Notes under the pieces: model-generated
Database searches by the model: none
Told to the model about the DNA's origin: nothing
Seen by the model: the letters and a program-made list of their open reading frames with translations, nothing else
Source: a virus
Lineage: Duplodnaviria; Heunggongvirae; Uroviricota; Caudoviricetes
IMG/VR virus record: IMGVR_UViG_2695420732_000023
DNA: 39,472 bases
Direction: 5' to 3' (one strand)
Shown here: positions 16,276 through 16,800 of the stretch, one piece after another
Layout of the letters: each line of letters starts with the position of its first letter
Numbering within the stretch: position 1 is the stretch's first letter
Made by a program: the position numbers and the translations under genes

Positions 16276-16455
16276 CTTATTATCCTGCATTGTTAAAAAC
16301 GGCAGAATCCTATGTGACAACAATTAAACGATAGTTAAATGGATTGATGAAAATTAAAACTATATAGGTGTACGGTCAGACTATTGGAGGTAGTCAGGAT
16401 TTGAATGTCAGTCTGTTGTCGGCATTCTGGCAATGCAATTTGGATAAAGCGGGGA

Positions 16456-16578
16456 TTAAAAAGATAGAGGCGAGCCGGTCAGGTAGAAATGAATCAGGCT
16501 TAAAGTGAAGCGGAAAAGGTCTGTGGCACAAGCTGATGCAGCCATAATTACAGCCTGATGATTTGTGGAATGAAACAT
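16456..16578 (-). CDS. hypothetical 40-aa ORF with strong Shine-Dalgarno (below track size cutoff)
   Basis: TAAGGAGGT 6 nt upstream of ATG at 16578; translation MFHSTNHQAVIMAASACATDLFRFTLSLIHFYLTGSPLSF. Confidence 0.3.
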   Translation of the reverse strand: MFHSTNHQAVIMAASACATDLFRFTLSLIHFYLTGSPLSF

Positions 16579-16658
16579 GTTGAACCTCCTTAATTGATGT
16601 TATTCGAGTGATGAAGGCATTCTGTCCTTCTATAGTGTCCAGTAAATCAAACAGGAAA

Positions 16659-16680
16659 CTTGTCCAACGTGTTGGACAAG
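16659..16680. promoter_or_regulatory. perfect 10-2-10 palindrome CTTGTCCAAC-GT-GTTGGACAAG (candidate protein-binding site)
   Basis: seen directly; about 120 bp upstream of the HNH gene start in the bor-HNH intergenic region. Confidence 0.4.
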
Positions 16681-16800
16681 CCTCTCCATTAGTGAGTTGT
16701 ATTGATCACAACTCTACAAAGAATTCATTACTGGGTAGATGAAAATAGTTTCACGATGAATGGAGGAGGCTATGTCGGTGGCTTCTTCATTGGAGTACAT

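Follow-up and report, generated by a model that had tools for sequence, protein, structure and literature searches.

The gap between the Bor/Iss lipoprotein gene and the HNH endonuclease gene of an Escherichia coli prophage raises the question of what a perfect palindrome and a short open reading frame (ORF) do between a lysis and a packaging module. The prophage is the IMG/VR virus record IMGVR_UViG_2695420732_000023, and the window analysed here is this whole stretch of 39,472 nucleotides (nt). A first-pass annotation had interpreted the palindrome as the operator of a dimeric regulator and/or the ORF as the gene of a small accessory protein. The main feature of the gap was absent from that annotation: the palindrome is flanked by two putative promoters for single-subunit phage RNA polymerases (RNAPs), and the predicted starts of both are aimed at the ORF. 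Together these parts make up a moron-like cassette of about 325 bp whose transcription signals appear to belong to foreign lytic phages and not to the host. On comparison with the promoters of such phages, we regard it as highly probable that the two sites are podophage-type promoters pointing at a real gene.

Two promoters for phage RNA polymerases

The two sites lie on the minus strand, with their predicted starts 57 nt apart:

16681-16704, minus strand: putative promoter A, for a T7-like (Berlinvirus-type) single-subunit RNAP, CAATACAACTCACTAATGGAGAGG; predicted +1 is the G at 16687
16627-16647, minus strand: putative promoter B, of the SP6 class (K1E/K1-5, Vectrevirus type), ATTTACTGGACACTATAGAAG; predicted +1 is the G at 16630

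The matrix for promoter A came from the 16 promoters of phage CarlSpitteler, a T7-like Berlinvirus whose own sites score 26-39.8 bits. With this matrix promoter A reached 31.5 bits, compared with 1.8 bits for the next best site on either strand of the window, and BLAST placed its matches at sites annotated as 'promoter' in Yepe2 and Kvp1 and at up to 10 places per T7-like genome. All 21 bases of promoter B recur unchanged in four promoter sites of phage K1E. With a K1E matrix (genuine sites 27.4-39.5 bits) promoter B scored 38.3 bits and the next best site of the window 3.5 bits; it is also the sole match in the window to the SP6 consensus within three mismatches, where 0 are expected. Over 29 nt it shares 96.6% identity with 6-9 sites in each Vectrevirus (K1E/K1-5-like) genome. 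Both promoters are kept in all 15 E. coli-type variants, with scores of 22.6-38.3 bits.

The window encodes no phage-type RNAP (none of its ORFs exceeds 649 amino acids, aa) and the sites are therefore orphan promoters, which could be served only in trans. A consensus scan found no sigma-70-like promoter in 15900-17400, nor in the corresponding region of Shigella phage SfIV.

Exchange of promoter specificity among relatives

Among related prophages the promoter specificity is exchanged between K1E, SP6/Zindervirus, Berlinvirus, KP32 and K11-like types, with layout, position and orientation unchanged. The SfIV version of promoter A, CAATACGACTCACTAATGGGGAGG, scores 36.8 bits, and the SP6-type promoter of the same phage, ATTTAGGTGACACTTTAGAAG, departs from the SP6 consensus by a single mismatch and agrees in 29 of 30 positions with a promoter of UAB_Phi78, an SP6-like phage. 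A perfect SP6 consensus (21/21) is present in a further relative (L127), a sequence that was not found among the complete E. coli genomes. The promoter variants of the Klebsiella loci are KP32- or K11-like: AATTAGGTAGCACTATAGGGAGG (the L014 variant) matches 10-13 sites per KP32-like genome, and AATTAGGGCCCACTATAGAGAC and ATTAAGACTCACTATTGGGAAGG occur there as well.

Seven Klebsiella prophages (L010-L014, L122, L124) carry an extra perfect palindrome resembling CTTGTCTC-TTATAA-GAGACAAG, about 200-260 nt upstream of the small ORF. An element further downstream in Klebsiella also gave matches to T5-like phages, which were dropped because they were at chance level and inside a coding sequence. A scan with ATTTANNNGACACTATAGAAG gave 21 matches, approximately the chance expectation, with none in Enterobacteriaceae.

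A 40-codon gene downstream of the promoters

The 40-codon minus-strand ORF and its strong upstream ribosome-binding site, both of which the first-pass annotation had pointed out, were confirmed:

16456-16578, minus strand: gene for a 40-aa protein, MFHSTNHQAVIMAASACATDLFRFTLSLIHFYLTGSPLSF, from reading of the frame and from conservation
16584-16592, minus strand: Shine-Dalgarno sequence TAAGGAGGT, separated from the ATG by 5 nt

The Shine-Dalgarno sequence TAAGGAGGT is invariant across the 15 E. coli/Shigella variants, and in Klebsiella its equivalents AAGGAG or AAGGAGG precede leaders that are otherwise unrelated. The ORF is intact in the great majority of variants, with 40 codons in E. coli/Shigella and 38 in Klebsiella. 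All nine E. coli/Shigella variants found first keep the 40 codons, the ATG and the Shine-Dalgarno sequence, and the few longer database entries are apparently frameshifted or truncated copies.

The predicted protein combines a variable N-terminal half with the conserved C-terminal motif RFTLSL(I/A)H(F/Y)YLTG(S/Y)PLSF. In codons 21-41 of 23 distinct E. coli-type alleles all eight variable sites are silent (one is a change of TAA to TGA), and five of these eight fall outside the pattern that was used for collecting the sequences. In codons 1-20, 11, 12 and 6 changes fall on codon positions 1, 2 and 3, respectively. In the 38-codon Klebsiella versions (MLKISLLSTIVNHKITFAVIYFLLSLIHFYLTGSPLSF, MHKPLIKLFLIKLLFSGFFQRFTLSLAHYYLTGYPLSF) the C-terminal motif is the same and the N-terminal halves are unrelated. 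Over the 15 codons shared by E. coli and Klebsiella, compared by eye, all five differences are silent third-position changes. The same five differences are non-synonymous in the frame of the o-spanin gene LysC, which overlaps on the opposite strand, so this overlap does not explain the conservation. These substitution patterns indicate that the C-terminal half is under purifying selection. The N-terminal half (codons 1-20, 16519-16578, minus strand) is hypervariable, with at least three unrelated types in E. coli and Klebsiella that preserve reading frame and start signals alike; either neutral drift or diversifying selection may lie behind this variability.

The protein had no match in Pfam, PHROGs, PADLOC or NCBIfam, and a scan of species-representative genome contigs with the peptide motif gave 0 matches. 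No homologue was found in Autographiviridae (T7/SP6-like phages), and the gene was therefore not simply brought over from a podophage. The best 19-aa Kyte-Doolittle windows score 1.40 for the protein of the window, 0.90 for that of SfIV and 1.83 and 1.41 for the Klebsiella types. With such moderate hydrophobicity, a role as a membrane toxin is not established.

The palindrome as an RNA stem-loop

The palindrome is present exactly as the first-pass annotation had described it, and it falls within the start of the transcript predicted for promoter A (transcript A); a further hairpin opens the transcript predicted for promoter B (transcript B):

16659-16680: perfect palindrome CTTGTCCAAC-GT-GTTGGACAAG (10-2-10), at +8 to +29 of transcript A
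16655-16684, minus strand: extended stem-loop of 13 bp, at +4 to +33 of transcript A
16613-16630, minus strand: 5'-terminal hairpin of transcript B, GAAGG-ACAGAAUG-CCUUC, beginning at +1; present in the minimum free energy and centroid folds

When the 15 variants are read on the ORF-sense strand, 95.4% of the cells of the 13-bp stem are paired and three pairs have changed on both sides; the compensated palindrome variants are CTTGTCTCAC..GTGAGACAAG, CTTGCCTCAC..GTGAGGCAAG and ATCTAAC..GTTAGAC. The pairs by which the stem extends beyond the DNA palindrome are GU, GC and AU, of which the G·U pair would be a mismatch in DNA or on the other strand. The palindrome hairpin is also found in the centroid fold. 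The hairpin of transcript B is 100% paired in the 15 variants, and its changes from A-U to G·U pair only on the minus strand. Downstream of genuine K1E and CarlSpitteler promoters, too, 5' hairpins are found. As a whole, the 248-nt transcript folds in an ordinary way (z = -0.47), and only its local hairpins matter.

Since the pairing at +4 to +33 is strand-specific and a terminator call made for the window sequence was not reproduced in relatives, we read the palindrome as an RNA structure: it appears to be the 5'-proximal stem-loop of the promoter-A RNA and neither an operator nor a terminator. Sites of the LexA, CRP, PurR/LacI-family and GntR types were compared with the palindrome by eye and did not fit it. 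The T7 class II pause signal (ATCTGTT) was also considered by eye and is not conserved among the variants.

A second hairpin, GAGTTGT-ATTGATC-ACAACTC (16694-16714, plus strand), overlaps promoter A. Its variants stay paired only as plus-strand RNA, with G·U pairs, and the minus strand is 84.8% paired. If arms must reach 10 bp or more and spacers may not exceed 8, block shuffles of the 39-kb window predict 0.23 perfect hairpins, and the window has four distinct ones. The three besides the palindrome, CCCCGTAAAC-TTTAT-GTTTACGGGG (13543-13567), AAGGCCGGTT-CGTT-AACCGGCCTT (21227-21250) and TAGCGGCCTTAC-TAAT-GTAAGGCCGCTA (36642-36669), are probably terminators.

The locus and its origin

The cassette and the genes around it are arranged as follows:

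15982-16275, minus strand: Bor/Iss lipoprotein gene (PF06291)
16389-16508, plus strand: relic 3' fragment of a LysC/Rz1-like o-spanin gene of the overlapped type, by homology to the intact LysC of SfIV and of E. coli RM9088
16471-16795, minus strand: inserted cassette of about 325 bp, approximate extent from comparison with a cassette-free relative
16801-17151: HNH endonuclease gene (PF01844), followed by P27-family terminase genes

The cassette is missing from E. coli strain 1190 (L132), in which LysC and HNH are 26 nt apart; its homology to the window breaks off at about 16470 and is regained at the start of HNH. The element is thus an insertion of roughly 325 bp and, as expected of a moron, it separates two genes that are adjacent in this relative. 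Every locus has it in the gap that separates the lysis from the packaging module, and in antisense orientation, next to varied neighbouring genes, and it is also retained in degraded prophages. Of 5426 complete E. coli genomes, 691 contain a core of 366 nt. RefSeq annotation by the Prokaryotic Genome Annotation Pipeline (PGAP) calls nothing at the cassette, and searches of the full-text literature found no description of it. The cassette outlasts a destroyed HNH neighbour in E. coli O157:H7 MB9-1 (L004) and in two further loci (L007, L008): in O157:H7 strains the HNH gene is disrupted by an insertion of IS1203, and in lambda-type nohD prophages it is reduced to a stub of 150 bp beside the persisting cassette.

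The region is a mosaic. Positions 16276-16394 match the bor-upstream region of lambda-like phages, 16389-16802 share 85% identity with the Rz1/LysC-HNH gap of SfIV, and the lambda bor-upstream module is joined on at about 16389-16395. The relic LysC, which gives a partial match to PF23793 (profile positions 35-68 of 69), lies opposite the final 17 codons of the small ORF, in antisense, and in SfIV-type phages a live LysC ends at the equivalent of 16508 and overlaps the ORF in the same way on the opposite strand. The dead fragment is the leftover of a replacement in which a lambda-type Rz/Rz1-bor module displaced an SfIV-type lysis module.

On the packaging side, the deposited linear genome of SfIV ends (...CCTGTGACCTGACGTCT) at the equivalent of window position 17210, 59 nt past the HNH stop, and the cos cleavage site of the prophage is therefore probably located at about 17205-17215. 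This candidate lies within an inverted repeat, GGGGCGGG...CCCGCCCC, with a T run behind it. A tRNA gene at the prophage's left end (1369-1441, plus strand, 71.8 bits) directly adjoins an ORF of 387 aa (1459-2622, minus strand); these are probably the integration site and the integrase. Rfam at the gathering threshold returned the tRNA only, and at a permissive threshold only chance matches to snoRNAs in 16200-17300.

Alternative explanations

Three alternatives concern the palindrome and the reality of the ORF. If the palindrome were an operator for a dimeric regulator and the ORF an accessory (lysogenic-conversion) protein expressed in the lysogen like bor, this would agree with the perfect 10-2-10 symmetry, with arms that vary symmetrically among variants as co-evolving half-sites would, and with a location that is typical for morons. 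However, the consensus scan found no sigma-70-like promoter for the ORF or at the palindrome, and the cassette with its flanks holds no regulator gene, its neighbours being bor, HNH and LysC only. The G·U, G-C and A-U pairs that extend the stem are not palindromic in DNA and have meaning only for minus-strand RNA, one-sided changes go via G·U intermediates, and the palindrome is placed at +8 to +29 of a phage-type promoter, all of which make this explanation very improbable. Of the original proposal, the small protein thus stands, with its start signals kept and its C-terminal changes silent, and the operator does not; palindrome and ORF are both kept in prophages of E. coli, Shigella and Klebsiella, with compensatory and silent substitutions. 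The palindrome could also be an intrinsic terminator for host RNAP on the minus strand, which would shield the ORF from antisense read-through from the packaging side, and the consensus scan does call GAGGCTTGTCCAACACGTTGGACAAGTTTC followed by CTGTTTGATT terminator-like. Yet the U-rich stretch is itself paired inside the conserved 13-bp stem, no such call is made for SfIV or Klebsiella, whose versions lack a U tract, and the similar palindrome of Klebsiella has an A run after it, so that a terminator seems very unlikely. That the small ORF is spurious, its conserved half merely reflecting the overlap with the 3' end of LysC, is suggested by the SfIV-type LysC, which covers the last 17 codons. 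This explanation is disfavoured and appears extremely unlikely: the substitutions in the overlap are silent in the minus-strand frame but alter LysC (N to S, L to S), the Pfam LysC domain stops 10 residues short of the LysC C-terminus, and the tail of LysC is different in the cassette-free strain 1190. Moreover, the ORF is conserved despite a truncated LysC in the window and despite a separate, intact LysC elsewhere in one Klebsiella prophage (L012).

The remaining two accept the promoters but not the peptide. The promoters and hairpin might be functionless debris of recombination between lambdoid and T7/SP6-like phages that hitch-hikes with the HNH/terminase module; lambdoid genomes are mosaic, a dead LysC fragment adjoins the cassette and the N-terminal half of the ORF evolves freely. 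Against such a relic, C-terminal variation is silent only, the start codon and Shine-Dalgarno sequence are intact in the large majority of copies across genera, both promoters are retained in all 15 variants with scores like those of genuine sites, specificity has been swapped with the architecture held, compensatory changes maintain the stem-loops, and podophages have no homologue of the ORF. We therefore find an inert relic distinctly unlikely. Alternatively, the promoters could be functional with the peptide not being the pay-off, if what counts are long minus-strand transcripts (for expression of bor/iss or antisense to the lysis genes) or a satellite-like hijack such as has been proposed for islands of tandem T7-like promoters. 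In the window bor/iss does lie directly downstream on the same strand, the consensus scan found no terminator-like site 3' of the ORF, and tandem T7-like promoters without a polymerase were reportedly read by Chen and Schneider as helper-dependent islands. But SfIV and the Klebsiella loci have no downstream bor and only antisense lysis genes there, transcription is directed away from the packaging genes, and only one element is found downstream in every case, namely the small ORF, which has a strong ribosome-binding site and is constrained at the protein level. This explanation, too, is unlikely.

Proposed mechanism

We propose that the cassette is silent in the lysogen, where it would be antisense to the late transcript of the prophage itself. 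When a T7-like or SP6/K1E-like phage infects the cell, its own RNAP would start at 16687 and/or 16630, and the 5' stem-loops would stabilise the mRNA. The small, moderately hydrophobic protein could then be made in bulk despite shut-off of host transcription and may harm the infected cell or the invader, resulting in exclusion or abortive infection; tandem and swappable promoters would broaden the range of phages that are sensed. That the small protein is expressed when triggered by the RNAP of an infecting podophage, with exclusion or abortive infection as the probable outcome, has in our view about an even chance of being correct. A wider interpretation sees in the cassette a natural defence module without a sensor protein, in which the RNAP of the invader is the trigger, the tandem exchangeable promoters are a multi-specific detector and the 40-aa protein is the effector, with promoters that diversify along with the local T7-like and SP6-like phages and a mode of action that works after host shut-off. 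We put this forward tentatively, as a serious possibility that falls somewhat short of an even chance.

Several points weigh against this proposal. The transcription, translation, toxicity and protection that it involves are all deduced from sequence. At -11 promoter A carries an A, its score falls into the lower half of those of genuine sites, and in some variants it reaches only 25.5 bits. The N-terminal half of the ORF evolves as though unconstrained, no family or defence-system model fits the protein, and its hydrophobicity is only moderate, with the usual cut-off of 1.6 exceeded by one Klebsiella type only. The second palindrome of the Klebsiella prophages sits upstream of the T7/KP32-like promoter, and indeed of any recognisable promoter, and the downstream Klebsiella element (AATAGTGGCGAGTATAGAAC or TATTAGTGGCGAGTATAGAAGAGG) resembles an SP6-class promoter but fits no known phage of the collection searched. 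Lastly, T7-like phages degrade host DNA, and the time for expression would thus be limited.

If the proposal is true, the cassette would be a minimal form of infection detection that borrows the transcription specificity of the invader, and escape would be hard for a phage, since it would need to rewrite all of its own promoters. A role of this kind would account for a conserved element that has no annotation and occurs in about one-eighth of complete E. coli genomes and in many Klebsiella prophages, and it would add a family of 40-residue proteins whose motif is strictly conserved. Host-range barriers would then be expected for K1E/K1-5, SP6, T7-like and KP32-like phages, which are all used or considered for therapy.

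Comparison with known systems

The signals of the cassette compare most directly with the class III-type promoters of Autographiviridae (T7/Berlinvirus, SP6/Zindervirus, K1E and K1-5/Vectrevirus, KP32/K11 Przondovirus), which they match over 21-24 bp including the initiation region, and in both cases a 5' stem-loop is followed by a strong ribosome-binding site. Unlike in these phages, the promoters of the cassette are located in a temperate lambdoid prophage without a single-subunit RNAP, and two polymerase specificities stand in tandem before one gene that itself has no homologue there.

The closest precedent is a set of promoter islands. Chen and Schneider (Nucleic Acids Res 2006, 34:1133) reportedly described, in the abstract of their study, islands of at least two tandem T7-like promoters in enterobacterial genomes, within phage-related DNA and without a polymerase gene. 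These are said to be prophage-like islands of 4-13 kb with promoters spread over 150-620 bases and with 2-5 phage-related proteins, and to have been read as satellites. Like the islands so described, the cassette has tandem promoters of the T7 group and no RNAP gene, and it may coincide with one of their 12 clusters. By that description it would differ from them in that the starts are 57 nt apart and the cassette, of about 325 bp with one 40-codon gene, is part of a complete lambdoid prophage of 40 kb.

With morons and lysogenic-conversion genes (lambda bor, the HK97 morons) the cassette shares its nature as a small autonomous insert in the lysis-packaging gap, antisense to the late operon. 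Classic morons, however, bring along a terminator as well as a sigma-70 promoter of the host type, and the lysogen expresses them; the consensus scan found none of these signals at the cassette. The predicted product resembles small toxic exclusion peptides (hok/sok acting against T4; type I toxins) in being short and partly hydrophobic, with a strong ribosome-binding site, and for the cassette, too, silence in normal growth and action at phage takeover are proposed. In contrast to hok/sok and the type I toxins, the proposed trigger is transcription by the polymerase of the invader and not the decay of an antitoxin; the cassette showed no toxin-family homology (Pfam, NCBIfam, PADLOC, PHROGs), no Rfam match and no promoter for an antisense RNA.

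In engineered suicide cassettes of Lactococcus a phage-inducible promoter is fused to a lethal gene, and a transcriptional activator of the phage is needed. The logic would be shared, namely a promoter that only an infecting phage activates, placed before a gene that is harmful (here proposed to be so). Unlike these man-made constructs, the prophage cassette is a natural element, which the polymerase of the phage itself would transcribe.

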